Source of the DNA: Elusimicrobiales bacterium
GTDB taxonomy: Bacteria; Elusimicrobiota; Elusimicrobia; Elusimicrobiales; UBA9959
DNA: 64,000 bases
Assembly (NCBI GenBank): GCA_035353595.1
Contig: DAOPZW010000001.1
Coordinates: 1,099-65,098, forward strand
Direction of reading: 5' to 3'
The notes beneath the pieces are model-generated. The model made no database searches. It worked only from the letters and a program-made list of their open reading frames with translations, and was not told the DNA's origin. The translations under genes and the position numbers were made by a program. Positions 3,169 to 57,814 of the stretch are shown in pieces. Position 1 is the stretch's first letter; every line of letters begins with the position of its first letter.

Positions 3169-3250
3169 AACCCTTGGAACTATTATACAGAAGTTGCGGG
3201 TATAGTGTATCTCCTATAGAAAAACGGTGGCGCGGGTGCCGCCTGTTTTT

Positions 3251-3266
3251 TGGCATAAAAATTGCT
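3251..3266 (+). promoter_or_regulatory. Sigma-54 (-24/-12) promoter TGGCAT-AAAAA-TTGCT
   Basis: Matches the TGGCAC-N5-TTGCW consensus with correct GG/GC spacing. Nearly identical to the sites at 4525, 57799 and 10397 (minus strand). Confidence 0.75.
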
Positions 3267-3310
3267 CTGCTGCGGGTACAATGACTATAATATGCCTTGA
3301 GAGAAAAACT

Positions 3311-4390
3311 ATGACAAGATCTTACCGCACAGGGCTGCACCACGTGACCGGGGCAAAAACTTCCGCCTCCGTAATGGGCGCCGTTAAAATGGGCCAGCTG
3401 GCCGCCATGAGCGAGGAGGAATTCGAGAAAAGCCTGCTCGAGATGGAGAGCGGCCGCACTTTCCAGCTGCTCAAGGCCTCCGGCGCCGTGAACCTGGCCG
3501 AATTCCCGTCGGCGCGCTACGCCGCGCGCAAATACGCGGGCTACGGTCTTAAACTTTCCGGCGGGGACCTGCCCGAACTGGCCGACGGCAAAGGCGACCT
3601 GGTGGCCCTGATCCAGGGAATCGGCCAGGAGAAGTTCGAAGCCTGCTTCCTTAAAGACGCCGCGATGAGCGACGTGGAGCGGGCCGAAGAGTGCGATATC
3701 AGCGTGGCCGACGCGCAGCGCCTGCGCGATTTTGTGAACCGGGCTTTCATCCAGGCCGAGTTCGAAGGCGCGGCCGAGGCGCCGGCGGCCAAAGTTTTCA
3801 GCGCGGTGGCCGGCATTGAACTTAATGACGGCGAGCCGCAGCTGGGCTTCTTCCACCGCGAGGTGTGGAAAGGCCGCTACAAGGTGGACGCCGAAAAGCT
3901 GGCGGCCCTGCTGCCGGGGCTGCCGCAGGCCGAGCAGAACCGCGTGGAGAAGCTGCTGCGCAAGCTGGAATTCGCCGACAAGCGCAAGACCACGCTGTAC
4001 CGCGCGCTGGAGATCCTGATCAGCGTCCAGGCCGAGTACCTGGCCACCGGCGAGGCCGGCCGCCGCCGTCCGCTGTCGCAGCGGACCATGGCTAAAAACC
4101 TGGATGTGGACGCCAGCGTGTTCAACCGCCTGATCTCCAATAAATCGATACAGATGCCCTGGGGCATGGAAGCGCCCATGAGCGCGCTGCTGCCCAGCCC
4201 CAAGAAAGTGAACATAGACCGGCTTTATGAGATCGCGTCCGAAAAACCCGAGCTCAGCGACGAGGCCCTGCGCACCGAACTGAAGACGCGCCACGGCATA
4301 GCCCTTTCGCGGCGCTCGGTGGCGCAATACCGCAAGGATCTCGGCCTGCAGTCCGGCGGCCGGCGCGCGCCCGAAGCGGCGCAAGAGTGA
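3311..4390 (+). CDS. Short, divergent sigma-54 (RpoN)-like factor
   Basis: Collinear with the RpoN C-terminal two-thirds: 'KRKTTLYRALEILISVQAEYL', HTH 'PLSQRTMAKNLDVDASVFNRLISNKSIQMPWG', RpoN box 'IALSRRSVAQYRKDLGL'. About 360 aa, against roughly 480 for typical RpoN. Start is uncertain (ATG 3281 or 3311). The ORF-track start at 3227 lies upstream of the predicted promoter. Confidence 0.75.
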   Translation: MTRSYRTGLHHVTGAKTSASVMGAVKMGQLAAMSEEEFEKSLLEMESGRTFQLLKASGAVNLAEFPSARYAARKYAGYGLKLSGGDLPELADGKGDLVALIQGIGQEKFEACFLKDAAMSDVERAEECDISVADAQRLRDFVNRAFIQAEFEGAAEAPAAKVFSAVAGIELNDGEPQLGFFHREVWKGRYKVDAEKLAALLPGLPQAEQNRVEKLLRKLEFADKRKTTLYRALEILISVQAEYLATGEAGRRRPLSQRTMAKNLDVDASVFNRLISNKSIQMPWGMEAPMSALLPSPKKVNIDRLYEIASEKPELSDEALRTELKTRHGIALSRRSVAQYRKDLGLQSGGRRAPEAAQE

Positions 4391-4524: not shown

Positions 4525-4540
4525 TGGCATAATTATTGCT
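4525..4540 (+). promoter_or_regulatory. Sigma-54 (-24/-12) promoter TGGCAT-AATTA-TTGCT
   Basis: Consensus GG/GC spacing. Followed by TCT, as at the other sites. Confidence 0.75.
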
Positions 4541-4647: not shown

Positions 4648-4740
4648 ATGGAATACCTGTTCGACATAGGATACTCATTTATTATCGCGGTCCTGGCCGT
4701 TGTCTATATTTCTTCCGTCCTGGTTGAGGGCGGCGTTTGA
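4648..4740 (+). CDS. Possible 30-aa hydrophobic micro-ORF in the leader of the DUF4097 operon
   Basis: Hand translation MEYLFDIGYSFIIAVLAVVYISSVLVEGGV. Lies between the sigma-54 promoter and the 4776 start. The RBS is weak (AAGAGAG directly abutting the ATG). Confidence 0.25.
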   Translation: MEYLFDIGYSFIIAVLAVVYISSVLVEGGV

Positions 4741-4775
4741 GCAGCTGGTTGATAAATCTTCAGAGGGAGAATAAA

Positions 4776-5597
4776 ATGAAAATACTGGCATCACTGGCGG
4801 TCATCTGCTTAGTTCCGGCAACAGCCGTTTATTGCGCGGCTCCGGAAATAAAAACTTTTCCCGCGGCGGGGATACAAAGTCTGCGCGTTGAAACCGGGGC
4901 CGGGGACATCCTTGTGGAGGGCGCGCCGGGGGACATACGGGTGGAGGTTACCGGCGAGGAGCCCGGCAAATGCCTGCTGACGATGAAGGCCGAAGCCGGT
5001 ATCTTTCTCGTCCGGGCCGAGGACGATCCCGCGGCCGCGACAAAACGCGGGTTCTGGCGCTCCCTTTTCGGCGGTTTTCACGGCGAGAATGGCTGCCAGG
5101 CGGGCTTTAAGGTTTCGGCGCCGGCGGCCCTGCCGCTCAGCGCGGCCAACGGCTCGGGCGAAATTTATATCAGCGGCCGCGACGGCGACGTGAGCGCCGG
5201 CAACGGCAGCGGCCATATCAAGGCGGAAAAAATCACGGGCAACCTGGACGTCAAGAACGGCTCGGGCGGCCTCTCCGGCGCCGGCTGCCCGAAAAGCCTG
5301 CGCGCGCGCACCGGTTCCGGCGGCATAACTTTCACCGGCCTTTGCGGGCCGGTCAACGCCGCCGCCGGCAGCGGCAATATCGAACTGAAATGGACGGGCG
5401 TTCCCCCCGCGGGCGAAGTGAGCGCGCGCACCGGTTCCGGGGATATCACCATGGTGTTCCCGCCTTCCGCCGCCATAGCCGCCAAGCTCGATAACGGTTC
5501 GGGCTCGATACGCAACGATTTCGTAAACGGCGGCAAATTTCCGGTGTCGGCCGGGGCCGGTTCCGGAAATATTTCCCTGCTCAAGGCCGTGAAGTAA
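4776..5597 (+). CDS. DUF4097-like beta-strand-repeat protein with signal peptide
   Basis: Starts MKILASLAVICLVPATAVYCA (signal-like). Reiterated 'GSG.I' strand repeats (NGSGEIYI, NGSGHIKA, TGSGGITF, AGSGNIEL, TGSGDITM, NGSGSIRN, AGSGNISL), typical of DUF4097 putative adhesins. Confidence 0.55.
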   Translation: MKILASLAVICLVPATAVYCAAPEIKTFPAAGIQSLRVETGAGDILVEGAPGDIRVEVTGEEPGKCLLTMKAEAGIFLVRAEDDPAAATKRGFWRSLFGGFHGENGCQAGFKVSAPAALPLSAANGSGEIYISGRDGDVSAGNGSGHIKAEKITGNLDVKNGSGGLSGAGCPKSLRARTGSGGITFTGLCGPVNAAAGSGNIELKWTGVPPAGEVSARTGSGDITMVFPPSAAIAAKLDNGSGSIRNDFVNGGKFPVSAGAGSGNISLLKAVK

Positions 5598-6039: not shown

Positions 6040-6067
6040 GCGCGGTTGAGGCGGGCGGCGCAAAAAG

Positions 6068-6099
6068 AGGCGCCCCGTAAAAACGGGGCGCCTGTTTTT
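6068..6099. terminator. Bidirectional rho-independent terminator (repeat copy)
   Basis: AGGCGCCCCG-taaaaa-CGGGGCGCCT stem-loop, flanked by an A-run on one side and a T-run on the other. Confidence 0.7.
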
Positions 6100-6117
6100 A
6101 TTTCGCCGGGTCTTGCG

Positions 6118-6648
<531 letters not shown>

Positions 6649-8037: not shown

Positions 8038-8304
8038 TCACTCATAATGGGTCCACATACGCAGCACTTTGACCGTGTGCTCGGGCTTGTAGACCTGGTA
8101 GACGAGGCGGTGCTTGATGTTAATGCGCCGCGAGTAGGCGCCGGCGAGGTCGCCGACGAGCCTTTCGTAGGGGGGAGGGTTCTGGAACGGGTTGGCGCGC
8201 AGAACGGCGAGCAGCGCCTCCGCGCGGGCGCGCAGGCCCGCGGCCTGGAGTTTTTTCGCGTCCTTGCAGGCGTCCCGCGTGAAGACGAGCTCCCAGCCTA
8301 CCAT
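8038..8304 (-). CDS. yoeB: YoeB/Txe-family type II toxin (mRNA interferase)
   Basis: 88 aa starting MVGWELVFTRDACKDAKKL, ending 'YSRRINIKHRLVYQVYKPEHTVKVLRMWTHYE', the YoeB signature. Overlaps the antitoxin stop by 7 nt. Confidence 0.85.
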   Translation of the reverse strand: MVGWELVFTRDACKDAKKLQAAGLRARAEALLAVLRANPFQNPPPYERLVGDLAGAYSRRINIKHRLVYQVYKPEHTVKVLRMWTHYE

Positions 8305-8540
8305 GGCAGCTTCTTGGCGCACTTTGAGACGGGGGTCTTCATGTTCTTGACCAGGGAGTCGCGCATGCCGGGAACAGACAGGAGGTAGAGCGTTTCCTGG
8401 ATGGCGTCCCAATCCTCGGCCGAGACGAGGACTGCGGCGGCGCGGCGGCCCTGGATCTGGACGGGGTGGTGGGTTGTCACGGCCGCGTCCACGAGGTGGA
8501 AGAGCTGGGCACGGGCCTGGCTGGTGGTTAGGGTTGTCAT
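8298..8540 (-). CDS. yefM: YefM/Phd-family antitoxin
   Basis: 80 aa. 'MTTLTTSQARAQLFHLVDAAVTTHHPVQIQGRRAAAVLVSAEDWDAIQETLYLLSVPGMRDSL' is the typical Phd/YefM fold sequence. The ORF-track N-terminal extension is rejected. Confidence 0.85.
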   Translation of the reverse strand: MTTLTTSQARAQLFHLVDAAVTTHHPVQIQGRRAAAVLVSAEDWDAIQETLYLLSVPGMRDSLVKNMKTPVSKCAKKLPW

Positions 8541-8835
8541 ATACTTATTGTACCAGATATTGTACCACTTGGCAAGGGGGGGGGGCTGTGGTGGCATTGT
8601 AAACCAGGATGAATAACTGTAATGCGGAATTAACAATAGCGGATGACAGGGATTCGCCGCGCGGTGTCGTGGAAGTAGAAGTTTTGCGACACTCGAAGAA
8701 AGAACGGGGAAATCCCACGACGAGAAAAGACAAGACGGGGGTGGACTTTTGCGACACTGAGGGAGGGTTGGGATAATTGGGGGAGTATTTTCGTGTCTGC
8801 CTATGGAAAATGGCGACTTCAGAAGAGGCTGCGGG

Positions 8836-9570
8836 TCAGAGGGAGAAACCAAAGAGCTTATCACTGAAGATGTTTAGGGAAACAAACAGATTCATATAGG
8901 CGTGAATTAAAATAACGGTTGAAAGTTTTTTCCCCTTCTCGTACGCAAAGCACATAAAAAAACCGATTAACATAGGATCGAGAAAGTCTTTGCCGTGTAA
9001 AAGTCCGAACAAGGCCCCATTAAGAAAAACAGCGGCAGCAAAGGGCAATTTCTTGCGCATGGCCACGTAAAGGCCCCTCCTCATAATGAATTCCTCTATC
9101 AAGGGCGAAAAGATGCAAAGGGCAAGGAGAAATAACGGTATTCTTGCTGGTGACGCCCGCAGAGCCGTTATAAACGAATCCGCAATCGCCGGGTTGTGTG
9201 TCTGGTCGTTCCAGAACAAAAGCATGTTCGACCACGGAAGGTCTATCGCCGCAAGAGCAATAGCAATAATCGCATCCGAAACATAAAGCAGGCACATTAA
9301 GACCACCCAATACTTCAAAGCCGGCTTGAATTCTGTTGTTATACCACTGAAATACTCACAAACATCTTTATACCCATAACCGAGTTTTTTAACATAGGGG
9401 TATATAGCAACCAAAGACCCAATACCCGTCATTACCAACTGTATTTCTTGATTCTTCAAGATAGGGAAGATCTTGCCCGGCAGGATTGCAAATAAAATAT
9501 AGGAAAGAAAGACTCTTCCAACCATCCATGTCAAATCCTTAAAATTCAAACTCTTTTTTTCAGTAATCAT
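8836..9570 (-). CDS. CPBP-family intramembrane glutamic endopeptidase (CAAX protease/bacteriocin-immunity type)
   Basis: Polytopic. Motif 1 'EEFIMRRGLY', motif 2 'FGLLHG', motif 3 'HAYMNL'. Confidence 0.75.
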   Translation of the reverse strand: MITEKKSLNFKDLTWMVGRVFLSYILFAILPGKIFPILKNQEIQLVMTGIGSLVAIYPYVKKLGYGYKDVCEYFSGITTEFKPALKYWVVLMCLLYVSDAIIAIALAAIDLPWSNMLLFWNDQTHNPAIADSFITALRASPARIPLFLLALCIFSPLIEEFIMRRGLYVAMRKKLPFAAAVFLNGALFGLLHGKDFLDPMLIGFFMCFAYEKGKKLSTVILIHAYMNLFVSLNIFSDKLFGFSL

Positions 9571-9696: not shown

Positions 9697-10347
9697 TTAT
9701 TTCCGAACAGGAGGATTAATCGGCAGGGGATGAAGCGCGGCACCGCCGCCACCGCCGCTGCCACCACCACCACTATTGCTCGGTGGTGTCGGAGTAGGTT
9801 CGTATTCCGAACAGACTTTGACTACTTGATCTATAAAATGGTCTACAACCCAGGTGGCGACCGTTGTGAGAATCCATGTAACACATTTACCTTTGGTAGC
9901 ACCATTAGCAGAAAGATTATAACGAATCGTGTTCAGTAGTATTTCATTGTCAATAGTGTTTAAGGTTTCCCCATCCTTCATTATTAGTATTTGGTTAGGC
10001 AATTTTAAAGTAATGATTACCCCTTCAATCTTTAGGTTTTTTTCAATGCTATCATCATGCAATCTTTGTGTATTGTATGAAGCTACAATATCTTTTATTA
10101 ACTGCTGTTTGCTTCTCATGGGGCTTTCTTTTGTGCCTGGCTCTACTTTGTTTGTTTCAAGGAAGGCGGATACGGTGGGAATTGGCAATGCCACCGTCTC
10201 GAAATCAGATAAAGCTTTCTTGAAGCCATCTAAAGATGATGTCAGATTGCCTCCCCTGTCAAAGTCAATTTGCATTTCCTCGGCCCTGGCCATCGAGGCC
10301 GCCGTCATCACCGCGAAGATCGCTATCAGTATGCTGGTCTTTTTCAT
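9697..10347 (-). CDS. Secreted protein with Gly-rich C-terminal tail, unknown function
   Basis: 216 aa. Signal peptide MKKTSILIAIFAVMTAASMARA. C-terminus 'PTPTPPSNSGGGGSGGGGG'. AGGAG RBS. Sits directly downstream of a sigma-54 promoter. Confidence 0.6.
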   Translation of the reverse strand: MKKTSILIAIFAVMTAASMARAEEMQIDFDRGGNLTSSLDGFKKALSDFETVALPIPTVSAFLETNKVEPGTKESPMRSKQQLIKDIVASYNTQRLHDDSIEKNLKIEGVIITLKLPNQILIMKDGETLNTIDNEILLNTIRYNLSANGATKGKCVTWILTTVATWVVDHFIDQVVKVCSEYEPTPTPPSNSGGGGSGGGGGAALHPLPINPPVRK

Positions 10348-10396
10348 AATTCTCTTATCTCCTAACCTTTAGATTTTGTGCCGTCACCTTTGTATA

Positions 10397-10412
10397 GGCA
10401 ATATTTATGCCA
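10397..10412 (-). promoter_or_regulatory. Sigma-54 (-24/-12) promoter TGGCAT-AAATA-TTGCC (minus strand)
   Basis: The reverse complement of GGCAATATTTATGCCA matches the consensus spacing. Lies ~50 nt upstream of the ATG at 10347. Confidence 0.7.
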
Positions 10413-10525
10413 AACCCCTGATTCGCTGTGCCTGGGCGGGTGTAATATCATGGTTATCGTCGGAGGAGTTCTTGTTATGGCGCGGCTTCATAGGGAGCTT
10501 TCAAAACACGGGGGCAGGGAATTCA

Positions 10526-10561
10526 GTCCCGTACCGGAACGATATCGTTCCGGTATGGGAC
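10526..10561. promoter_or_regulatory. 36-bp palindrome GTCCCGTACCGGAACGAT|ATCGTTCCGGTATGGGAC
   Basis: 18-bp arms with 1 mismatch. Lies ~115-150 bp upstream of the minus-strand sigma-54 promoter and ~50 bp upstream of the EBP2 start. Candidate activator or operator site. Confidence 0.5.
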
Positions 10562-10609
10562 TATTCCGCCGGATTTTGGTATCATTCTGGATACCGAACA
10601 AGGGGACTT

Positions 10610-11953
10610 ATGCAAAAACTGAAGATACTGGTTATTGAGGATGACAGCCTGGCGCGCGAGGTGATGGCCGAGAACTTGGCCGGCCATGCGGTGGACTTTG
10701 CCGCGGATAAGGCCGCGGCCGAGCGCAGGCTGAAGGCCGGGGATTACGATATCTGTTTTGTGGATCTGCTTCTGGGCGTGGACGATGACTATTCCGGGCT
10801 GAAGTTGATTCCATTGGCGGCGGCTAAGAAAATATACACGGTGGTGATGTCGGGTTGCGATACCGAGGACACCATAAGCCGCGCCTATGCGCTGGGTTGC
10901 AGCGAGTTCTACGTCAAAGGCAATGAGGTGGCCAATATCCCGGCCATCATAGTCCGGTATCTGCAGGGTGACGGGGGGAAGAAAGCGCAGGAAATCTTCG
11001 CCGGGGATTTTATTACCCACGACCCAGAGACACGCGGGCTGGTGACGGAGGCGCTTAAATATGCCGCCACGAGCCTGCCGTTGATGATATTGGGGCCCTC
11101 GGGGACGGGCAAGACTACGCTAGCACAGTTATTGCACGACCATTCCGGCCGGGAAGGGGATTTTGTGGCGATGAACTGTTCGGCCTATACAGAGGATCTG
11201 CTGGAGGCCGAGCTGTTCGGCTATAAGCGCGGAGCGTTCACCGGCGCGCACGAAAACCGCAAAGGGAAACTGGCCCAGGCGGACAAGGGCACGCTGTTCC
11301 TGGACGAGATAGGCGCCATGAGCCAGAATATGCAGGTAAAGCTGCTCAAAGCCATAGAAGAGAAGCGTTTTTCTCCGCTGGGTTCGGACAAGCCCGAGTA
11401 TTCCGACTTCCGTGTGATGAGCGCGACGCTGGAGGACGTGCAGAAGCTGCTTGCCGAGAAACAACTGCGGTTCGATTTCTTCCAGCGCGTGCACGGCATG
11501 ACGATAACGCTTAAACCTCTGGCGCAGAGGAAATGCGACATTTTCCCTCTGATGCAGGCTTTGACCAGAAAGGGGAAGCGGCTGGCCTTCGAGCCCGAGG
11601 CCAGGGAGTACGTGCTGGCGCATAACTGGCCAGGCAATACGCGGGAGCTAAAACGCTTTGTGGAGCTAGTAAGCGCCGGCACGCATGGACAGGTAACGCT
11701 GGAGACCGCGCGCCGGCATATTACGCCCGCCGCGCCGGCTACGGCGGCCACCGGGGCGGCGGCGGGGGAATACTATGATTATGCGCTTAAACACGGCTTG
11801 GCGGCCGCGGTGGACCGCCTTACGGGGGAACTGGTAAACCGCAGCCTGGACGAGAACGGCGGCAAGAGGGCAGCAGTCCTGGCGCAGCTTAAGATCTCAA
11901 AGCGTCTTTTGTATGGTACGCTGTCGAAAACGCGCGGACCGGAGGGAAAATAA
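10610..11953 (+). CDS. Sigma-54-dependent response regulator, paralogue of 1781..3127 ('EBP2')
   Basis: Starts MQKLKILVIEDD (AAGGGGA RBS). 'GPSGTGKT', 'GAFTGA', 'WPGNTRELK', C-terminal HTH. Long identical runs with EBP1, for example DLLEAELFGYK, GTLFLDEIGAMS, ITLKPLA, CDIFPL. Confidence 0.92.
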   Translation: MQKLKILVIEDDSLAREVMAENLAGHAVDFAADKAAAERRLKAGDYDICFVDLLLGVDDDYSGLKLIPLAAAKKIYTVVMSGCDTEDTISRAYALGCSEFYVKGNEVANIPAIIVRYLQGDGGKKAQEIFAGDFITHDPETRGLVTEALKYAATSLPLMILGPSGTGKTTLAQLLHDHSGREGDFVAMNCSAYTEDLLEAELFGYKRGAFTGAHENRKGKLAQADKGTLFLDEIGAMSQNMQVKLLKAIEEKRFSPLGSDKPEYSDFRVMSATLEDVQKLLAEKQLRFDFFQRVHGMTITLKPLAQRKCDIFPLMQALTRKGKRLAFEPEAREYVLAHNWPGNTRELKRFVELVSAGTHGQVTLETARRHITPAAPATAATGAAAGEYYDYALKHGLAAAVDRLTGELVNRSLDENGGKRAAVLAQLKISKRLLYGTLSKTRGPEGK

Positions 11954-11954
11954 C

Positions 11955-12137
11955 ATGGCCGACATCGAGAAGATCTATCACAATATAAAGTCCAAGGCGG
12001 TAAACCTTAAAGCGGCGGCTGAGCAACTGGATAAATATCCGCAGGATAAGCGCGATAAATTTATACCGCTCATGCGTGAGGCGGCGCAGGACATTATAAG
12101 ACTGTTGGGTGAGCTGGAGGCGCAGCCCCGGAAGTAA
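11955..12137 (+). CDS. 60-aa helical His-containing protein (mini HPt-like), paralogue of 1592..1771
   Basis: MADIEKIYHNIKSKAVNLKAAAEQLDKYPQDKRDKFIPLMREAAQDIIRLLGELEAQPRK. ATG is 2 nt after the EBP2 stop, with GGAGGG upstream. Shares H-x-[LI]-[RK]-S-K-x3-L-K-x-AAE and the ...LM+-AA--I---L-ELEA pattern with the 1592..1771 product. Confidence 0.7.
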   Translation: MADIEKIYHNIKSKAVNLKAAAEQLDKYPQDKRDKFIPLMREAAQDIIRLLGELEAQPRK

Positions 12138-12156: not shown

Positions 12157-14289
12157 TTAACTTTCTGACTTCACGCCCCAGGGGGCTTCTTTGGTAACCA
12201 CCCGCAGCCAGGGAAGGTGGGCGAATCTTTGCGGCGGGTGGCCGGTGGCCAGGGAAATATTGGTGTAACCTTTCTCTTTGAGCTCGACGGCTATGTTTTC
12301 ACCTTTTATGTTGTCGCCGAGCTCGGAATCTATATAAAGTGGAATATCTTTGGGGAAGTCGCCCAGGCTTGCCAAGAACTCGGCCGGGTTGGTAAACGCC
12401 TTGAGTTCGATGCCGTTTTCCTGGGCGGCCCATTCCCAGTTCATATGCGTGATGGCGTCGTCGTCCAGCAGGACCGCCCGCGTAGGCGGGGCGGCGGCTA
12501 CCGAAACAGGCACAAAACCGGACAAGCTTTTGGGGATCATCCGCACTTTAAGCCGGGCGCATTCCTCAATTATCCGTTTTTCTTCGCAGCGGCTGGTGAC
12601 CAGTATTGTCTGGCCGCAAAGGCCGAGCTCTTCGGCCAGGCCTAAGCCGGTTTCTTTATAGCCCGCAAGCTCATAGTCGAAAAGACAGACGGCGCTTTCG
12701 GCTTTTGCTGAATTGTCTTTAATCCAGGAGCGTAATTTATCAGGCTCGCAGAAATGGAGAATTTCAATATCATATTCTTTGACGCGGGCGGATTCGAACC
12801 AGCCGCGCCAGATCTGGTGGATGCCGGGGTCGTCATCAAGTACTACTACCGGGCGGCCGGGGGGAAGTGCTAGCGCTGACACGAAACCGGCCGGGGCCGC
12901 AGCCTTGGGCAGTTTTATGGTGACTGTGGTACCTTTGCCGGGCGTTGAAGCGATTGCCAGGCTGCCGCCCCAGCTTTCCGCGGTGGACCTGGCGTGGAAC
13001 AGGCCGAGGCCCGAGCCGCCGGCTTTGCCGTGGGTTTCGCCCTTTTGCCCGAGCTTTGTCAGGATCTCGGGCGGTATGCCTTTGCCTGTGTCCGATACCG
13101 TCAGAACAACTTTTTCATCTTCATGTGTTAACTTCACGTCCACCGCACCTTTATCCCCCAAGGCCTCGACGGCATTATTGACCAGGTTGGAGATCATGCG
13201 CCGGAATTCGATCGGCTGGAGCCTGGCGAACAGGCCGTAGGATTCCCGTGTTAATTCAAAATCAATATTGATGCCGGGCTTTGATCCGAATTGCAGGCGC
13301 TTTTCCGTGACGACCGGATCTATGAGGCTTGAGAGCAGGCGAACTTCCGGAGGCTCGCCGGCGACATGGCCGCCGGCGGCTCTGCCGGCTACAGCGCTTG
13401 GCTGCTGCCGGTTCTTTTCGAGAAGGTTGTTGGCTATGTCGCGTATACGATTGACCGCGTGGCGCACCATAATGCGCTGCTTCTCTGGGAGTTGTTCTGT
13501 GTTCTTGAGCGCGGCGTCCAGAGCTACCAGAGGGGAGCGGATATCGTGGGCGACCTGGGCGGCCATATTGGAAACGGCCTTGCTTACGGCAAGCTCGCTT
13601 TCAAGGCGCGCGGCCAGCCCCAGCGCGTCGCTCATGCGGTTGGTCATCTGGGCGAAAGGCACGCCTATAATATCCGCCGGGAGAGTTTCTATATGGCACT
13701 TTATCGAATCGCGGATAATGTCGCTCCGGCCGGACCCGGCTATGGCGTTTATCTCGTTGATGGAGCGCTCGATGGCCAGCAGCGTCCGCATAGCGCCCAG
13801 GTTGGAAATTATCAGCAGCCCCAGGAAGAAGAATACCACGGTGATGAACAGAATGTAATTCTGCCCGAACGCCACGGCGTTAACGTCCACAAGGTCTATG
13901 ACATATTCAAGCCGGCCAAGCTCCGCGCCGTTAGAGATGAATGGGACATTGTGTGTTATCTGGGCGCGAGACCTGTCGTAAAGGTTGCCGACTATGGCCT
14001 CTTTAAAGATCCACCGGCTGCCCTCGAACCCTACCGGGTGGAAAGTGATGCGCTTGATGTTGTCGTTCTTGATGCGCCACATGATGCGTTGCGTCTCGAA
14101 GACGTCACCATCAAGAAAAGCCTTCTCGAAGTAAGCTGCGTTCTGACGCATGGCGGTCAGCAGCTTGTCGTTCGCCACACGCACTGCGGAGAAGGCCGAG
14201 AACGCCTGCCAGAAAGCGACAAAGACCAGCACCGACACTACGTAGTGCCGCCAATTGTAGGCAAGAATGCGGGCAAAAAGTCTTACCAT
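12157..14289 (-). CDS. Hybrid sensor histidine kinase (2 TM, HisKA, HATPase_c, two C-terminal receiver domains)
   Basis: H-box 'AHDIRSPLVAL'. N/G boxes 'NLVNNAVEA', 'DTGKGIPPE', 'GGSGLGLFHA'. REC1 'VVVLDDDPG...CLFDYEL...ILVTS...MIPK'. REC2 'AVLLDDDA...LYIDSEL...SLATG...VVTK'. Confidence 0.88.
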   Translation of the reverse strand: MVRLFARILAYNWRHYVVSVLVFVAFWQAFSAFSAVRVANDKLLTAMRQNAAYFEKAFLDGDVFETQRIMWRIKNDNIKRITFHPVGFEGSRWIFKEAIVGNLYDRSRAQITHNVPFISNGAELGRLEYVIDLVDVNAVAFGQNYILFITVVFFFLGLLIISNLGAMRTLLAIERSINEINAIAGSGRSDIIRDSIKCHIETLPADIIGVPFAQMTNRMSDALGLAARLESELAVSKAVSNMAAQVAHDIRSPLVALDAALKNTEQLPEKQRIMVRHAVNRIRDIANNLLEKNRQQPSAVAGRAAGGHVAGEPPEVRLLSSLIDPVVTEKRLQFGSKPGINIDFELTRESYGLFARLQPIEFRRMISNLVNNAVEALGDKGAVDVKLTHEDEKVVLTVSDTGKGIPPEILTKLGQKGETHGKAGGSGLGLFHARSTAESWGGSLAIASTPGKGTTVTIKLPKAAAPAGFVSALALPPGRPVVVLDDDPGIHQIWRGWFESARVKEYDIEILHFCEPDKLRSWIKDNSAKAESAVCLFDYELAGYKETGLGLAEELGLCGQTILVTSRCEEKRIIEECARLKVRMIPKSLSGFVPVSVAAAPPTRAVLLDDDAITHMNWEWAAQENGIELKAFTNPAEFLASLGDFPKDIPLYIDSELGDNIKGENIAVELKEKGYTNISLATGHPPQRFAHLPWLRVVTKEAPWGVKSES

Positions 14290-15696
14290 CTAAAATTCGC
14301 CACCTCGGGGTATTCCATTAGTTCGCTACCGACAACAAGATTTTTTATTTCCCTGGGATAATAAACTGTGTCATTCCCCTGATAAAGAGCAAGGGCGGCA
14401 TAATGCTTGGAAAGTTTATTCGCGATTTCCTCAGCCAGCCGCCGGCGCGGTTCCCGGGAGTCTTCATTTAAAAGCTCTGTATATTCAGCATTCAGGCCCG
14501 CAACATTATAATCCAGATAACTGCCTTTTCCAGTGAATGATGAAAGGAAGTCCTGCTGCTCTGCCCGCATAGCGCTGAGCATTATCACCAATAAGTCGTA
14601 TGCACGGGGTCTTTTACTGAGAGATGCCGCGAGTGTGTTTGCGTCATAGTTCACAACCTTGATATTTAGGCCTGTCCTCTTGTGGAGGATAGAGGCAAAT
14701 TCGGTAATCTGCGGAATATTATCCTTCCGCCAATTTGCAAGAATTATTGGTCTGGCGAAACTATGCTTTCCGCAGAGCGAACGGTCCTGGTAAGGAAGCC
14801 CGGCCCTGGCCCCTGGGATCCCCAACGGAAAAACCGTCTGAATATTATAAAAGGACTGTTTTTGGGGGAAGTAAGCCCGCCGGAAAGTATCAACGTCAAT
14901 GCAGTTGTACAGGACCTCTCTGATTTTTTCATCCGCTACGTTTATCAGCAGAACTTCAGATTTTAGCCCTAAATTCTCAAAACTCAGGAAGCCTTTCCTG
15001 ACATGCTCCGGGACATCGAACGGCGCGATACGGTTAAAATCTTTTACGGCTTTATTGTGCAGATTGGGATCGTTCCCCCCCTTTATAGTCGTAAAAGGCG
15101 ATTTTATTGTACCCGTGCGCCACAGGCTCCTTACGCACGAGAGTTATTTTGTCTTTGGACATTTCCGAGATCCTATACGCTCCCAGACCGAGCTGGTACG
15201 CCCCATTGTCAATGGCGGGCGCGTTTTCGTATTGAGAAAGGAAATCTAGGTAGCCACTCCGGCCCCGCTTGAAAGTTACAGCGCAACAGCTGCCGGTGTT
15301 GGTTACCGTGGCGGTTGGATCGTAGCTGGCGGTGACAGCACGTAAATAATTGTTGAAATACTCCGCGGAGAACGGGCGAGAAGTGTCGAAGTGCAGGTTG
15401 GTATCCGGGCACAGAACGTACTGTGAAGAGTCGGCGCTCCTGCTCCAGTTGCTCAGCACTTTCGTCGTGTAATTTTGCCCGTCATCTTTCCGGAAGACCG
15501 GTTCATGGGTCTGCTTCAGGATATAGTAAACACTGTTTGTAATAGTCTTCGTCGATATTCTGTCGGGTAGCGCAGAAAGCAGTGCTCCCCATACTTTTGC
15601 GTCGCTCCGGGCAACGGATAACCCCCACAGGGCCGCACACAGGACGGCAATCGCGGCGAATGCGAGTCTCGCTTTTTTATGTGGCCAGATCATCAT
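14283..15696 (-). pseudogene. Family-5 (peptide/nickel-type) periplasmic solute-binding protein, split by a frameshift in a C7 run
   Basis: ORFs 15052..15696 and 14283..14825 are the N- and C-terminal parts of one SBP. Removing one base from the C7 homopolymer (15075..15081) gives an uninterrupted ~470-aa frame, verified by hand from 15074 to 14826 with no stop. The stop overlaps the kinase start by 7 nt. Confidence 0.75.
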
Positions 15697-15717
15697 TACA
15701 AAAGGGCGATCACCAGA

Positions 15718-17154
15718 CTAGCGCGCCGGCGGTTTTTCAGCTTCACTGCAGGGGGCAAGCAGACATTTATTTGCGCGCTCCTGGAGGTTTTCGTAGTCCA
15801 CACCGCTAGCCAGAGCTTTTTCATATTCTGCACAGGCCAGCTCCCGCTCACCGAGGAGATCGCGGCAATTTCCGATATAAAAATGCGACAAGGCATCCCA
15901 GACCGGCTTCAACGAACCAGCCTGCCCCAGGATGGCGTTATTGAATTCTTCGATGGCTTTTTGATGCTTTCCGGCGGCCATATGTACGCGCCCAAGAATA
16001 TGCCAGGAATACTCGTCCGTGGGTTTGTCTGCCAAAGCGCGGAGAAGTCCTGATTCCGCCTTATCATAAATCCCGGCGTTAAAATAGCTTTCTGCCAGAT
16101 CCTTTTCCACCTGCGCTCTGGCATAGGCCTCATCGCCGCTTTTATCGCCGAACACGTACCCGCCTCCGTTCACGGGCGGCAGTGAAAAGCCACTGAACTC
16201 CGCTGCGGAAGGATATGCCTCCGTCCCTCCAGGCTGCAGGATGAAGAATTCCCGGTCCGTCCCGACAACAGAGGACTTGACCTTGATGTTTTCTCCGATG
16301 AGGCAGATAAGCCGTTTTGGATAAAGGTTGCCGAAAAACCACTCCGGGCTGACATCACCTATGCCCGCCGTCTCCCTGACCCGCCTGGCAAGGGCGCTTT
16401 CCGGTTCAAATTTGAATCTTCTGGCTAGGGTAGGGTCAACTGGGACCCAACCAAAAGGCGGAAGAAAGACCTCCGCCCATTGATGGCCGCCGTTTTTTAA
16501 CCAGTTACAGGTCACCGTCCTCGCGGGGATGCCCTGTGAGCGGCATAGAGAGATAAAAACAGCGCAGAATTCACCGCAATCGCCTTTCAACCTCTTAAGA
16601 GACTTCGATGCTCCGCGAGATTTAAAGTCTGGATATTCATAGTGGAGGTTATCCACTACCCACATAAAAATCTTTTTAGCGATAAAATATGGGTTGCGCT
16701 CCCCTCCGGCTATCTCTTGCGCTTTTGCCATAATCTCACCGGAGATATCAAGCCAGCCCTCGGATATCGTATAGCGGACATACTCGGCAGAATTTTTGTC
16801 GCACCAGGAAACACGCTTCGGGTCTATCTTAATAGACACTCCCTCGAACTCCAGGTCGAAATCATAGTAAAAGGTCGCTTGGCCGCTACCGGCCAGGCTC
16901 CCGGCTTTTGTATTCCAGATAAGGATCCGATTGCCGTTGGGCTGGTCGTCGATGATAGCCGAAGGCTGCGGCGAGAAAGTGAGATTCTCAACCCGCTGTC
17001 CCATATGGTTCATCGGTAGGGAAAAGAAAAGGGTTATCTCACCCACGCCAGTTGCTGACAATTTTAGATTGTCCACGAAATACCAATATCTACCATGAAC
17101 ACGGCAGCGTTCAGGCGCGATTTGGATGGGAGCTGTGCGGGATTCTTCAGGCAT
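15718..17154 (-). CDS. Transglutaminase-like (Cys-His-Asp) enzyme with C-terminal TPR repeats
   Basis: 'GDCGEFCAVFISLCRSQGIPARTV...GGHQWAEVFLPPFGWVPVDPT' is the transglutaminase-core triad context. The C-terminal ~120 aa is TPR-like. No signal peptide. Confidence 0.75.
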   Translation of the reverse strand: MPEESRTAPIQIAPERCRVHGRYWYFVDNLKLSATGVGEITLFFSLPMNHMGQRVENLTFSPQPSAIIDDQPNGNRILIWNTKAGSLAGSGQATFYYDFDLEFEGVSIKIDPKRVSWCDKNSAEYVRYTISEGWLDISGEIMAKAQEIAGGERNPYFIAKKIFMWVVDNLHYEYPDFKSRGASKSLKRLKGDCGEFCAVFISLCRSQGIPARTVTCNWLKNGGHQWAEVFLPPFGWVPVDPTLARRFKFEPESALARRVRETAGIGDVSPEWFFGNLYPKRLICLIGENIKVKSSVVGTDREFFILQPGGTEAYPSAAEFSGFSLPPVNGGGYVFGDKSGDEAYARAQVEKDLAESYFNAGIYDKAESGLLRALADKPTDEYSWHILGRVHMAAGKHQKAIEEFNNAILGQAGSLKPVWDALSHFYIGNCRDLLGERELACAEYEKALASGVDYENLQERANKCLLAPCSEAEKPPAR

Positions 17155-17165
17155 GTGTAAATGGA

Positions 17166-18053
17166 CTATGTTGAGAGTGCGGCCAGAGTTTTCCGACCCT
17201 TAGCTCTTAAACTGAAAAGATACTTGCACATGGCGCAAGGCGCTGAATGCTGTGGGGAGAACTTGGGGGAGGGAATCTTAAAATACTCTATCAATTCCTG
17301 GAAAGTTTTTTTGCGCATGATAGAATAGAACTCGCTGCCGAGATGTCCTGCCAACGTCGGATGCACATATCCTCTCCCATCCCCGTCCAATGCAAGATGG
17401 GAACAACATGTGGTAAAACCTTCGCCGGGAAGATAAATCAGTTTATTGTTGTTTGGGCATTTTTTCTGCAGGACGTCCGCGTCAAAGCTCGGGTAAATGT
17501 GCTGTAGTTTGTTCTTTTGCGCCGCACCTATAGGGTGTATCGGCTGAACACCGACCGGGAAGTCCCCCATCTTTTTAAGATCTTTGATAAGCAGAAGGTC
17601 CATTGGGGTCTGGACCGTCATCAAGACATTAAAGCTTCTGCCGCTCCGCCTGCATGCAGAATAAAGATTTGACAGGTTCGCCTCTTTCTGGAACGCTTTA
17701 TGGAAGCGGTCGTATGATAACTGGACGCCGGAAAGCGCCCTAAACTCGTTTAGGACCGTTAAGGCGGCCGCTTCGGTCCTGGCGAAGTGCCCGTTAGTGG
17801 TTATCTTTATTTGCGGGAAGGGCGCGTATTTGATTCCGGAGAGAATCGTGTTTATCTTGTCTATGTACAATGTCGGTTCACCGCCGACAAAAAGCAGCGA
17901 CTGGAACTGATATGTATTTATTGCTCTGATTAGAAGATGGATCTCTTCTTCGGTAAGACTTACCTGGCGCTTTTCGCTGACCCCGCAATGCGCACAGTTG
18001 AAATTACATCTATATCCTACAAGTATACTGCAGCTGGTCGGCCTATTTCGCAT
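17166..18053 (-). CDS. Radical SAM enzyme (short, with C-terminal Cys cluster)
   Basis: 'YRCNFNCAHC' is the CxxxCxxC motif. 'GGEPTL' SAM-binding motif. C-terminal Cys residues ('TTCCSH', 'CAMC') suggest an auxiliary cluster. Confidence 0.8.
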   Translation of the reverse strand: MRNRPTSCSILVGYRCNFNCAHCGVSEKRQVSLTEEEIHLLIRAINTYQFQSLLFVGGEPTLYIDKINTILSGIKYAPFPQIKITTNGHFARTEAAALTVLNEFRALSGVQLSYDRFHKAFQKEANLSNLYSACRRSGRSFNVLMTVQTPMDLLLIKDLKKMGDFPVGVQPIHPIGAAQKNKLQHIYPSFDADVLQKKCPNNNKLIYLPGEGFTTCCSHLALDGDGRGYVHPTLAGHLGSEFYSIMRKKTFQELIEYFKIPSPKFSPQHSAPCAMCKYLFSLRAKGRKTLAALST

Positions 18054-18134
18054 AAAATAGCTGGCATTACCAGGATATCGTATAAAAAGACGGCGGGGTC
18101 AGCAAGCATGGGACAGTTGATGTCTAGACCTGAG

Positions 18135-18338
18135 TTATCCGACTTTTTTAGTATCCCCGGCAGCATCAAATACCGGAGATTCACACACCAGAACCCCGGT
18201 ATCAGAAATCTTGGCAACCGAAAATAATTTCGTTCTTTCGCCTATAGAAAGCGTCTGAACATACTGCATAGCCTGGGTAGTGGAAAAAATCCCTACGGAA
18301 ACCAGGAAGGCCGCTATCACTTTATCTTTGTTCGTCAT
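18135..18338 (-). CDS. 67-aa secreted small protein, candidate radical-SAM substrate
   Basis: AAGGGGA RBS 6 nt before the ATG. MTNKDKVIAAFLVSVGIFSTTQA|MQYV... has a signal or leader with an AxA-like site. The predicted mature ~44 aa has one Cys. It is the first gene of the operon, directly upstream of the rSAM gene. Confidence 0.5.
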   Translation of the reverse strand: MTNKDKVIAAFLVSVGIFSTTQAMQYVQTLSIGERTKLFSVAKISDTGVLVCESPVFDAAGDTKKVG

Positions 18339-18361
18339 TTGTATTCCCCTTAACTCCTAAC

Positions 18362-18390
18362 ATTCTGCCATTTTCAGCGCGGCCTTACAA
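18362..18390 (-). promoter_or_regulatory. Possible sigma-70-type promoter TTGTAA-17-CAGAAT for the peptide/rSAM operon
   Basis: Read on the minus strand. 17-nt spacer. The -10 element ends ~23 nt before the ATG at 18338. Preceded by an A/T-rich hairpin plus T-run (18381..18426) that could insulate it from read-through. Confidence 0.3.
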
Positions 18391-18677
18391 AGAAAAAAGG
18401 AAAAGCAAATTTTGATTTTGCTTTCCCTGGATGCGCCGGATTAAGGTCCGACCGTGGATACCCGGGGGCCAATTCCCCCGATTACAAGGAAACTACGATT
18501 AGAGTTTAGCTGACTTAGGTTGCGCCCGGAAGTGCCGTTGGGCCTGGTGGGTTCTAGGCCCTGCCTTCCCCGCAGTTGAATGACGCCATTACTGGTTCTG
18601 CTTCTTTGCAGTTTTCCGCAAGGCCGAGGTTGTTGGCGCGGGCCTTACCGCCGCAGGCGGTACAATGGTGACCGTAA

Positions 18678-18941
18678 ATGGGCCCGAAGAATTCGCACTG
18701 CGTTGTGCGGCTGGGCATCTTCGACGGCGAGTTCCACTGGCACAAGCACGACGCGGAAGACGAACTCTTCTACGTGCTGGAAGGCAGACTGCTGCTGGAC
18801 CTGGAGGGCCAAACCCTGGAACTGCTGCCCAACCAGGGCTACACCGTCCCCAGGACCGTGCTGCACCGCACCCGCGCCCGGGAAAAAACGGTGGTGCTGA
18901 TGGTGGAAAAGAACACCGTAAACCCCAAAGGCGACAACTGA
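18678..18941 (+). CDS. Cupin-domain protein, probably N-terminally truncated or degraded
   Basis: 'GEFHWHKHDAEDELFYVLEGRLLLDLEG...VPRTVLHR' is a cupin_2 core. Only 87 aa. A stop sits immediately upstream in frame, and an N-terminal-like 'NGPEEFAL' occurs in another frame. Confidence 0.5.
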   Translation: MGPKNSHCVVRLGIFDGEFHWHKHDAEDELFYVLEGRLLLDLEGQTLELLPNQGYTVPRTVLHRTRAREKTVVLMVEKNTVNPKGDN

Positions 18942-18994
18942 GAAACAAAAGGGCCCCTGCGGCTTGTCTTATGTTTGCCGCAGGCCGGCGCAGT

Positions 18995-21426
<2,432 letters not shown>

Positions 21427-57798: not shown

Positions 57799-57814
57799 TG
57801 GCATATAAATTGCT
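57799..57814 (+). promoter_or_regulatory. Sigma-54 (-24/-12) promoter TGGCAT-ATAAA-TTGCT
   Basis: Consensus spacing. Followed by an ~85-nt leader and an AAGGAG RBS before the ATG at 57911. Confidence 0.75.

Follow-up and report, generated by a model that had tools for sequence, protein, structure and literature searches.

A candidate peptide-signalling cassette behind a 2'-dG-II-type riboswitch in Elusimicrobiota

What does a tightly packed set of genes for a small secreted peptide, a radical S-adenosylmethionine (SAM) enzyme, a transglutaminase-fold protein, a peptide-binding protein and a hybrid histidine kinase do for its host? Such a set lies in a 64,000-nt stretch of DNA from an Elusimicrobiales bacterium (assembly GCA_035353595.1, contig DAOPZW010000001.1), here called the window; all coordinates are positions within it, and the cassette genes are all on its minus strand (Table 1). 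A preliminary description of this DNA proposed a loop in which a peptide is produced, modified, exported and sensed. The core of that proposal survives, being conserved across neighbourhoods, although its transglutaminase turned out to be accessory and a riboswitch had been overlooked. We now read the locus as a self-contained signalling cassette of the peptide-pheromone type that a nucleoside riboswitch gates, an interpretation that we hold to be reasonably, if not strongly, probable. It starts from what is observed, namely the gene content, gene order, conservation, fold assignments and riboswitch family membership. The list of open reading frames (ORFs) agrees with five co-directional genes separated by gaps of 81, 11 and 21 nt and a 7-nt overlap, the latter joining the stop of the binding-protein gene to the start of the kinase gene.

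We scanned one genome per GTDB species and obtained 29 loci in which the radical SAM enzyme has a full-length relative. Metagenome-assembled genomes (MAGs) of Elusimicrobia account for most of them, and one each is labelled Halobacteriovorax, Deltaproteobacteria and Geoanaerobacter. The small ORF is conserved directly upstream of the radical SAM gene in 27 of these 29 loci, as judged by tblastn and ORF inspection. The binding-protein gene follows downstream in 26, and the kinase gene is next wherever the contig continues. Several genomes carry two or three cassettes, among them UBA9634 (L006, L007 and L023) and STB_10 (L004, L015 and L025). Rather than occurring independently, the genes for peptide, radical SAM enzyme, binding protein and kinase thus stay together across many species and in paralogous copies.

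Just outside the coordinates of the preliminary description, which missed it, lies an element that changes the regulatory logic. An alignment of upstream regions revealed a non-coding block conserved far better than the proteins. In the window, this block matches Rfam family RF03165 (the 2'-dG-II class) over its full length (model positions 1-71 of 71) with 82.2 bits against a gathering score of 60 (E 1.2e-21), and within the purine clan this family matches best. Aptamer and peptide gene share a strand, with the aptamer upstream and 83 nt between its end and the ATG; the aptamer has a G-C pair at the top of helix P1 and an extended J3/1 (compare PMC6847200). In 19 further cassettes, RF03165 scores above threshold (62-86 bits) directly upstream of the peptide gene and nowhere else in those loci. 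Selective binding of 2'-deoxyguanosine is known for class members env1, env6, env23 and env30 (PMC6847200).

The aptamer overlaps an intrinsic terminator that is conserved in the alignment of upstream regions (A3). The 5' arm of the terminator, GGGAAA (18422-18427), is also the 3' strand of helix P1; hence P1 and the terminator are mutually exclusive, which predicts a ligand-ON switch. The ligand-free minimum-energy fold contains helices P2 and P3 and the terminator, and P1 does not form. By analogy, we infer a ligand-ON architecture like that of pbuE. Downstream of the terminator, a candidate promoter, also termed P2, has columns shared by 21 cassettes, and sibling peptide-first cassettes conserve it too; its pattern is TTGnnn-17-TGGCAGAAT. 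Conservation is what speaks for this internal promoter: a consensus sigma-70 scan of 18250-18700 returned no promoter above threshold. It looks like a weak extended -10 promoter, which may give basal expression. Upstream of the aptamer, most cassettes share a conserved palindrome, AGGCCCaaaGGGCC, and a TAnACT -10-like box (18500-18560, minus strand; A3 columns 1-75), which together may be the riboswitch promoter with an operator. In one metagenome cassette (L113), an insertion of ∼1.3 kb separates the riboswitch from the peptide gene; its ORF appears transposase-like by eye.

The aptamer-based pattern also occurs in at least 119 metagenome stretches, 80 of which we analyzed. In 17 of the 80, the riboswitch precedes the same peptide and an EpeE-like radical SAM enzyme, and one further copy is disrupted by an insertion element; with ∼25 of the 29 genome loci, these 17 keep the core gene order. 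Some 11 others begin with a different small peptide with a hydrophobic leader, followed in the longer contigs by an SBP_bac_5 protein (35-94 bits). Two of these (L134 and L142) are sequenced through, and there the SBP_bac_5 gene precedes a YcaO-like gene (23.9 bits), after which comes the gene for that same kinase. In another two loci, a YcaO-like protein that exceeds the gathering score (27.9 bits) is encoded between the peptide and the SBP_bac_5 protein, with the kinase last. Seven begin with other radical SAM enzymes, and ∼16 with a secreted 'DFDG-motif' protein, with a gene for a CPBP protease visibly next in six. The remaining quarter or so begins mostly with uncharacterized secreted proteins (one trypsin-like), and includes three other small secreted peptides and a few loci with no obvious downstream gene. 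Where downstream genes are identifiable, in about two thirds of the 80 loci, they are peptide-signalling cassettes or secreted proteins. Sibling cassettes that combine the kinase with a different hydrophobic-leader peptide, a clear SBP_bac_5 protein and a YcaO-like protein were seen in L131, L157, L134, L142, L085, L092 and L156, in two gene orders. In siblings of this kind, the place of the EpeE-like maturase is taken by YcaO-like proteins or by another radical SAM enzyme.

[quoted passage not shown] No other observation argues as strongly for the peptide as ligand of the binding protein–kinase pair.

Divergence within the cassettes bears on the same point. For 16 complete cassettes, mean pairwise identity is 53% for the peptide leader, 23% for the peptide core, 44% for the radical SAM enzyme, 41% for the binding protein and 65% for the cytoplasmic part of the kinase. 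The extracytoplasmic segment of the kinase is the most conserved part of the cassette (79% mean, 86% median). Core similarity tracks that of the binding protein and the radical SAM enzyme (rho 0.28-0.30) and not that of the kinase (rho ∼0), in pairwise comparisons that ignore shared ancestry. This pattern fits a variable binding protein that acts as specificity determinant and docks on an invariant kinase. Precursor, modifying enzyme and receptor kinase are co-located in ∼25 genome loci, and the two most variable elements, core and binding protein, are correlated in their similarities when phylogeny is left aside.

The 67-residue ORF, which had been credited with a good ribosome-binding site, indeed has AGGGGA 7 nt upstream of its ATG. 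Its signal-peptide-like leader (approximately residues 1-40) is conserved, with the consensus M-x-x-K/N-D-K-V/I-I-x-A-F-L-V-S-x-G-x-F-S-x-x-Q-A-x-Q-Y-V-x-x-L-S-x-x-E-K, and the C-terminal 20-30 residues are hypervariable. A conserved leader with a hypervariable tail is the sequence pattern of a RiPP or pheromone precursor. Most cores contain a V/I/L-rich stretch and about half contain Cys. A profile search recovered 83 representatives among 1.84 billion proteins, all but two of 34-92 residues. The peptide has no match among Pfam or NCBIfam families, and its homologues are annotated as 'hypothetical protein', apart from two JGI entries with an evident mis-annotation. In no examined locus did we see an ABC exporter or a C39 peptidase encoded by the cassette, consistent with export mediated by the leader.

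The call of a radical SAM enzyme holds (Pfam Radical_SAM, 45 bits), and several lines of evidence place the protein near the peptide epimerase EpeE/YydG. Its best NCBIfam match is TIGR04078 (YydG/EpeE), with 67.9 bits over residues 7-284 against model positions 2-296, which does not reach the equivalog cut-off of 300 bits. A profile built from 41 family members matches YydG (8ai1) over the full length in a search of the PDB (E 1.6e-25); the next matches, viperin and MoaA, extend over the N-terminal core only (1e-8). With an AlphaFold2 (AF2) model of the enzyme (predicted local distance difference test score, pLDDT, of 93), the top nine Foldseek matches are all EpeE (E ∼3e-14, template-modelling score, TM, ∼0.7), followed by SkfB (1.6e-8). 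Within the family, C16, C20 and C23 of the CX3CX2C motif are invariant, as are C199, C216, C273 and C276, and C209 and C217 are conserved in at least 90% of members; the C-terminal cysteines align with those of YydG. These residues predict a CX3CX2C cluster plus one auxiliary [4Fe-4S] cluster in an extended twitch (T-SPASM) domain. C217, which comes second in the CC motif, lines up with residue 248 in the chain of the structure, and this is the H-atom donor Cys223 of EpeE if the tag offset is 25 (compare PMC5682303, PMC13012085). The enzyme does not belong to a known cofactor-maturation family, a case that the preliminary description had singled out for checking, and its closest relative by both sequence and fold is a RiPP epimerase. 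We rejected the cofactor-maturase alternative because matches to the models of MoaA, viperin, NirJ and HxsC are confined to the N-terminal radical SAM core and are no better than 1e-12.

For the binding protein, sequence models alone gave no family. Pfam and NCBIfam returned nothing for its two fragments or for the repaired protein of 470 residues, in the latter case even at a Pfam E of up to 1, and the PF00496 gathering score was not reached. PF00496 is matched by 3 of 23 orthologues only (best E 1.6e-5). A profile of the orthologues weakly matches NikA/CntA in the PDB (E 2e-5), and hhalign of this profile against one clear SBP_bac_5 protein is collinear and weak (probability 9%). Structure is more telling: an AF2 model of an intact homologue that is 87% identical (P0063, pLDDT 90) retrieves YliB, NikA, DppA, OppA and MppA with Foldseek, at E values of 1e-24 to 1e-21 and TM scores of 0.6-0.74 over ∼500 columns. 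The earlier assignment to family 5 is therefore right at the level of the fold, the homologue model having a cluster-C fold. The gene itself is interrupted by one extra base in the G7 run at 15075-15081, a +1 frameshift where the window reads AAAGGGGGGGAAC and the 87%-identical orthologue of L001 reads AAAGGTGGAAAC. Since all 116 homologues are uninterrupted (most of ∼430-490 residues, with a few shorter fragments), the frameshift is recent or technical.

The kinase is a membrane protein with an extracytoplasmic loop of ∼110 residues, a HisKA-like H-box and two C-terminal receiver-like domains. It matches HATPase_c with 89 bits, and HisKA below threshold (21.1 bits, cut-off 26.9). The description of it as a hybrid kinase rests on these receiver-like domains, both of which show canonical DD, D, T/S and K residues on inspection but match Response_reg weakly (19 bits). 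Its start overlaps the stop of the binding-protein gene in most loci. The overlapping codons and the conserved loop are suggestive of coupling between binding protein and kinase.

A sigma-54-dependent regulator had been proposed as the target of this pair, and the linkage recurs: the regulator gene is within 8 kb of the cassette in at least 8 of the 29 genome loci (including L001, L005, L006, L008, L010, L019 and L025) as well as in the window, and homologues are found near the cassette in several metagenome loci. The window regulator matches Sigma54_activat (182 bits) and Response_reg (35 bits) of Pfam, and the LuxO model at 152 bits, below its cut-off. Beside it is an ORF of 60 codons that is conserved next to the regulator in 14 loci besides the window, with an invariant His in the motif K(L/I)xHx(L/I)KSK. 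When this protein was examined as a possible histidine-phosphotransfer (Hpt) or dimerization and histidine-phosphotransfer (DHp)-like domain, no PDB or Pfam match was obtained; a weak hhalign match (E 0.0056, probability 6.5%) places its His on the H-box His of the kinase. We found no Hpt domain of the LuxU type. Speculatively, the 60-residue protein is a candidate for the phosphotransfer role.

Table 1. Features of the cassette and its surroundings (positions in the 64,000-nt window)
Feature	Position	Strand	Remarks
2dG-II-type purine riboswitch aptamer	18422-18492	-	P1-P2-P3 three-way junction
Intrinsic terminator	18393-18428	-	12-bp stem, 7-nt loop, T6; from terminator scan and minimum-free-energy fold
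Candidate sigma-70-type promoter P2	18362-18390	-	TTGTAA, 17 nt, TGG-CAGAAT; between terminator and peptide gene
Precursor peptide gene	18135-18338	-	67 residues
Radical SAM enzyme gene	17166-18053	-	295 residues
Transglutaminase-core/TPR protein gene	15718-17154	-	478 residues
Family-5 (cluster C) solute-binding protein gene	14283-15696	-	split: 15052-15696 and 14283-14825
Histidine kinase gene	12157-14289	-	710 residues
60-residue protein gene	11955-12137	+	invariant His; starts 1 nt after regulator gene
Sigma-54-dependent response regulator gene	10610-11953 (also given as 10376-11953)	+	receiver, AAA+ and DNA-binding domains; convergent with kinase gene
Sigma-54 promoter-like site TGGCATAAATATTGCC	10397-10412	-	near-consensus; 50 nt upstream of secreted-protein gene
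Secreted 216-residue 'DFDG-motif' protein gene	9697-10347	-	probable output gene
CPBP/Rce1-type intramembrane protease gene	8836-9570	-	probable output; Pfam Rce1-like, 60 bits
Direct repeat, left copy	6051-6540	.	∼490 nt, duplicated 3' end of icd
Direct repeat, right copy	18990-19479	.	∼490 nt, duplicated 3' end of icd

The third gene of the operon is where cassettes differ in content. Its product, a cytoplasmic protein, matches Transglut_core of Pfam (82 bits) and TPR, has no signal peptide, and shows on motif inspection the Cys-His-Asp residues announced for it (GDC193, GGH224 and VPVD240). As a part of the system, it is limited to the window, L001, L002 and the metagenome locus L155. In 15 loci the slot holds a GNAT-like protein of ∼230 residues (with weak Pfam support). 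Other occupants are an M3 oligopeptidase (402 bits; L006, 1163-3151), a TldD/PmbA peptidase (167 bits; L020, 8883-10262) and a beta-lactamase-fold protein, and the slot is empty in seven loci. Because unrelated enzymes or nothing at all take its place elsewhere, we regard the transglutaminase protein as accessory. The position after the radical SAM gene looks like a variable site for tailoring or processing. TldD/E is known as a RiPP leader peptidase in the case of microcin B17, and by this analogy the TldD/PmbA and M3 occupants hint that the slot encodes leader-processing enzymes. The analogy once drawn to the leader peptidases of lasso-peptide biosynthesis (B enzymes) retains its basis, a transglutaminase core near a precursor, but for an accessory gene it could be at best a lineage-specific option. 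A reading of the locus as a lasso-peptide cluster was rejected, as the cassette has no cyclase and no RiPP recognition element (RRE).

What the cassette might control is suggested by sigma-54 promoter-like sites. We relied on near-perfect TGGCAT-N5-TTGC sites only, together with their recurrence in other loci; window-wide, the pattern occurs 18 times against 33 expected at up to two mismatches and is thus not above chance. In L001, L002, L004, L008, L024 and L029, equivalent TGGCAT-N5-TTGCT sites come after the kinase gene and before genes for secreted proteins or a second RiPP-like cluster. In L002 (5938-7426) and L008 (12821-14589), what follows is another cluster of a small peptide and a radical SAM enzyme, so the signalling cassette may control other peptide natural products. 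The L008 cluster comprises a small Cys-rich peptide, a small ORF of ∼108 residues and a radical SAM enzyme. The pair of DFDG protein and CPBP protease seen in the window is found directly behind the riboswitch in L084, L101, L120, L144, L146 and L148. Three further near-perfect TGGCATA-N4-TTGCT sites are present in the window (3251-3266, 4525-4540 and 57799-57814), one of them ahead of a gene for a secreted DUF4097 protein (4737-5597).

Cassette, regulator and output genes share a low-G+C island of ∼12.5 kb between two direct repeats. The G+C fraction is 0.44-0.57 at ∼7-19 kb and 0.58-0.65 in the flanks, consistent with the island noted at first sight. The repeats are ∼98% identical and spaced by 12,939 nt, and the left copy encodes a truncated C-terminus of isocitrate dehydrogenase. 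A duplicated icd 3' end is the classic footprint of integration at icd, as with element e14 of E. coli. No integrase gene was seen. The island also carries, on the minus strand, a toxin–antitoxin pair (8038-8412 and ∼8380-8620) whose toxin is YoeB-like (37 bits) and whose antitoxin is of the Phd/YefM type (64 bits), and just to the left of the island is a gene for a protein with a sigma-54 DNA-binding domain (57 bits; 3227-4390, plus strand). A known anti-phage defence system was considered and rejected, PADLOC having given generic radical SAM core and AAA+ matches alone.

How would such a cassette work? From these observations we infer the ligand, the ON logic, the modification chemistry, export, the peptide–receptor pairing and the phosphorelay route as follows. 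Transcription would start upstream of the 2dG-II-type aptamer, and the terminator would form when no ligand is bound. On binding of the ligand, 2'-deoxyguanosine or a close guanine nucleoside, P1 would sequester the 5' arm of the terminator and allow read-through into the operon, with the weak internal promoter probably giving basal expression. In the cytoplasm, the EpeE/YydG-like enzyme would modify the variable C-terminal core of the precursor, most likely by L-to-D epimerization. The signal-peptide-like leader would carry the peptide across the inner membrane, with trimming or tailoring perhaps done by the enzyme of the variable slot, in this case the transglutaminase-fold/TPR protein. Outside the cytoplasm, the family-5 binding protein would capture the peptide and dock on the conserved loop of the kinase. 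Phosphoryl groups would then pass through the receiver-like domains of the kinase, and possibly the 60-residue His protein, to the sigma-54 regulator, which would activate promoters such as the one ahead of the secreted protein and CPBP protease.

Several observations weigh against this picture or parts of it. First, a promoter-like element follows the terminator, so the riboswitch may modulate rather than gate expression. Secondly, these aptamers, whose ligand specificity is a prediction, carry U at the position of A77 in env1; an A77U mutant bound 7-fold more weakly in vitro (PMC6847200). Thirdly, with its binding-protein gene frameshifted, the window copy of the cassette may be off, decaying or mis-assembled. 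Fourthly, the radical SAM enzyme stays below the equivalog threshold of the EpeE family and has Asn203 where EpeE has Asp210, so its chemistry may differ; given the Cys in about half of the cores, other chemistry, for example formation of a thioether link, is possible. Fifthly, such conservation of the leader is unusual for a Sec signal peptide, bulky residues are frequent at position -3, and L026 has an interrupted hydrophobic stretch; for these reasons, the peptide's N-terminus may be a recognition leader or a membrane anchor rather than a cleaved signal. Moreover, the correlations between core and binding protein take no account of common descent. Finally, a positive feedback loop is not evident, since a sigma-54 promoter in front of the peptide operon was found only in L001 and L017 (at -278).

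The main rival is that the peptide is chiefly an epipeptide-type antimicrobial or cannibalism toxin, like the product of B. subtilis EPE, and that the sensing arm serves self-protection or auto-induction, as with nisin and NisK, rather than a dedicated cell-density signal. We judge this unlikely, though compatible with signalling. The sole characterized relatives of the radical SAM enzyme do make membrane-active toxins (PMC7026026, PMC13012085), yet no cassette contains an EpeAB-like ABC exporter or immunity transporter. Outputs include a CPBP-type protease, from a family often linked to bacteriocin immunity or processing, and in L002 and L008 the sigma-54 promoter is ahead of another RiPP-like cluster. 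Hypervariable cores would suit toxin–immunity arms races as well; the cores here, however, are short, polar or charged and not obviously amphipathic, and sibling cassettes with no detected maturase beside the peptide keep the binding protein and the kinase.

A second alternative, less likely again, would separate the two arms: the binding protein and kinase would respond to some unrelated solute from outside, for example an oligopeptide, metallophore or nucleoside-derived compound, and the peptide and radical SAM enzyme would be a co-transcribed effector. Family-5 proteins bind many kinds of ligand (Ni-chelates, glutathione and the signal HEHEAA are represented in the Foldseek match list), and the riboswitch points to a nucleoside or DNA-turnover theme. 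But three architecturally different cassette types each combine the peptide with a maturase, the binding protein and the kinase, and the binding protein varies as much as the radical SAM enzyme does and follows the core in its divergence, which is unexpected for the receptor of a fixed metabolite. That the small protein is never released and instead acts as an N-terminally membrane-anchored kinase modulator (MgrB/SafA-like), tuned by the radical SAM modification, would suit the unusual conservation of its hydrophobic N-terminus, of the QYVxxLSxxEK segment and of the kinase loop, but is very improbable, as it leaves the conserved and translationally coupled binding protein with no role and sits poorly with the hypervariable C-terminal tails and the interrupted L026 stretch.

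Modified-peptide pheromone signalling is textbook knowledge in Gram-positive bacteria; to our knowledge, it is barely documented in diderm phyla. If the signalling interpretation is right, the cassette would be a modular and mobile diderm example in which the receptor has a new layout, pairing a family-5 binding protein with a kinase that has a conserved loop. Radical SAM chemistry of the EpeE type on peptides would then reach past Bacillota and past toxins, and the 2'-dG-II class, whose structure is solved and which was known from unassigned metagenomic reads only, would acquire a host phylum, a defined group of target genes and a directly testable role. The pairs of hypervariable core and binding protein would amount to a natural library of orthogonal peptide–receptor pairs. 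More tentatively, and as a possibility that we would not yet call probable, these loci form an unrecognized family for peptide quorum sensing or kin recognition in diderms, with a pheromone that has a Sec-type leader, interchangeable RiPP maturases (EpeE-like radical SAM or YcaO-like) and a route from a dedicated family-5 receptor through the kinase to sigma-54, licensed by 2'-deoxyguanosine as an intracellular cue of DNA breakdown. Its hosts would be Elusimicrobiota, with relatives in Lentisphaerota and Bdellovibrionota. In that case, the natural hosts and the main regulon of the orphan 2'-dG-II class would be found as well.

The preliminary description had not recognized the gene combination as a described quorum-sensing or RiPP family, and we came to the same view, having found no account of a system of RiPP, binding protein and kinase in the literature searched. 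Nor did that literature combine dG-II with radical SAM enzymes, and the items found on Elusimicrobia, riboswitches and 2'-dG make no mention of Elusimicrobia. Parts of the cassette do resemble known systems. Lasso-peptide B/B2 proteins share with the window a Cys-His-Asp transglutaminase core beside a RiPP-like precursor; here, in contrast, the core is joined to a TPR domain, lacks a cyclase (C) and an RRE/B1 partner, occurs in only four cassettes and is replaceable by unrelated enzymes. In the streptococcal RaS-RiPPs under shp/rgg control, small radical SAM-modified peptides are likewise linked genetically to signalling by peptides (PMC9389541, PMC13361665). Those RiPPs, however, are what a separate quorum-sensing circuit with a cytoplasmic receptor produces, whereas here the modified peptide is itself the candidate signal and the receptor is extracytoplasmic.

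The epeXEPAB (yydFGHIJ) operon of B. subtilis is alike in having a small precursor gene directly upstream of an EpeE/YydG-type radical SAM gene, and its enzyme, the closest solved structure, shares with ours the single auxiliary cluster and the conserved H-donor Cys of the CC motif. Identity between the radical SAM enzymes is, however, ∼21%, and the precursor here is unrelated, with a hydrophobic leader of 40 residues that differs from the EpeX leader. Counterparts of the EpeP protease and the EpeAB ABC transporter were found neither in the window cassette nor in homologous loci. What accompanies the peptide and its enzyme here is instead the set of binding protein, kinase and sigma-54 regulator, with a riboswitch in front. 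Epipeptides have been described as antimicrobial and restricted to Bacillota (PMC13012085, PMC7026026), whereas the cassettes reported here are in Elusimicrobiota and other diderm lineages.

With agrBDCA and comQXPA, the cassette shares a single operon for precursor, modifying enzyme and receptor kinase, hypervariable signal and receptor parts, and the existence of multiple specificity variants. It differs in a receptor that is split between a soluble binding protein and a kinase with a conserved sensor loop, in its radical SAM or YcaO-like maturases, sigma-54 regulator, diderm hosts and riboswitch, and in that no autoinduction promoter was found before the operon apart from the two sigma-54 sites mentioned above. 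The LuxP-LuxQ-LuxU-LuxO circuit, generally known from autoinducer-2 (AI-2) sensing in Vibrio, has a layout like the one predicted here for the receptor arm: a periplasmic binding protein with a membrane hybrid kinase feeding a phosphorelay to an NtrC-type sigma-54 regulator. The Vibrio binding protein is, however, of the ribose-binding-protein type and ours of family 5 (oligopeptide/nickel); the presumed ligand here is a ribosomal peptide from the same operon, and where Vibrio has LuxU, no Hpt domain of that type was found, the one candidate being a 60-residue His protein of uncertain role.

The riboswitch, lastly, falls within its class (Weinberg et al. 2017; Matyjasik and Batey 2019), with full-length matches of 82-86 bits against the gathering score of 60. 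The class was described from 12 metagenomic examples with unassigned hosts (PMC5473149), whereas the hosts here are Elusimicrobiota MAGs. Among the published 2'-dG-II gene associations of Weinberg et al. (2017), as relayed in part by PMC8872408, is a 'signal receiver domain', which plausibly stems from kinases like that of the window.

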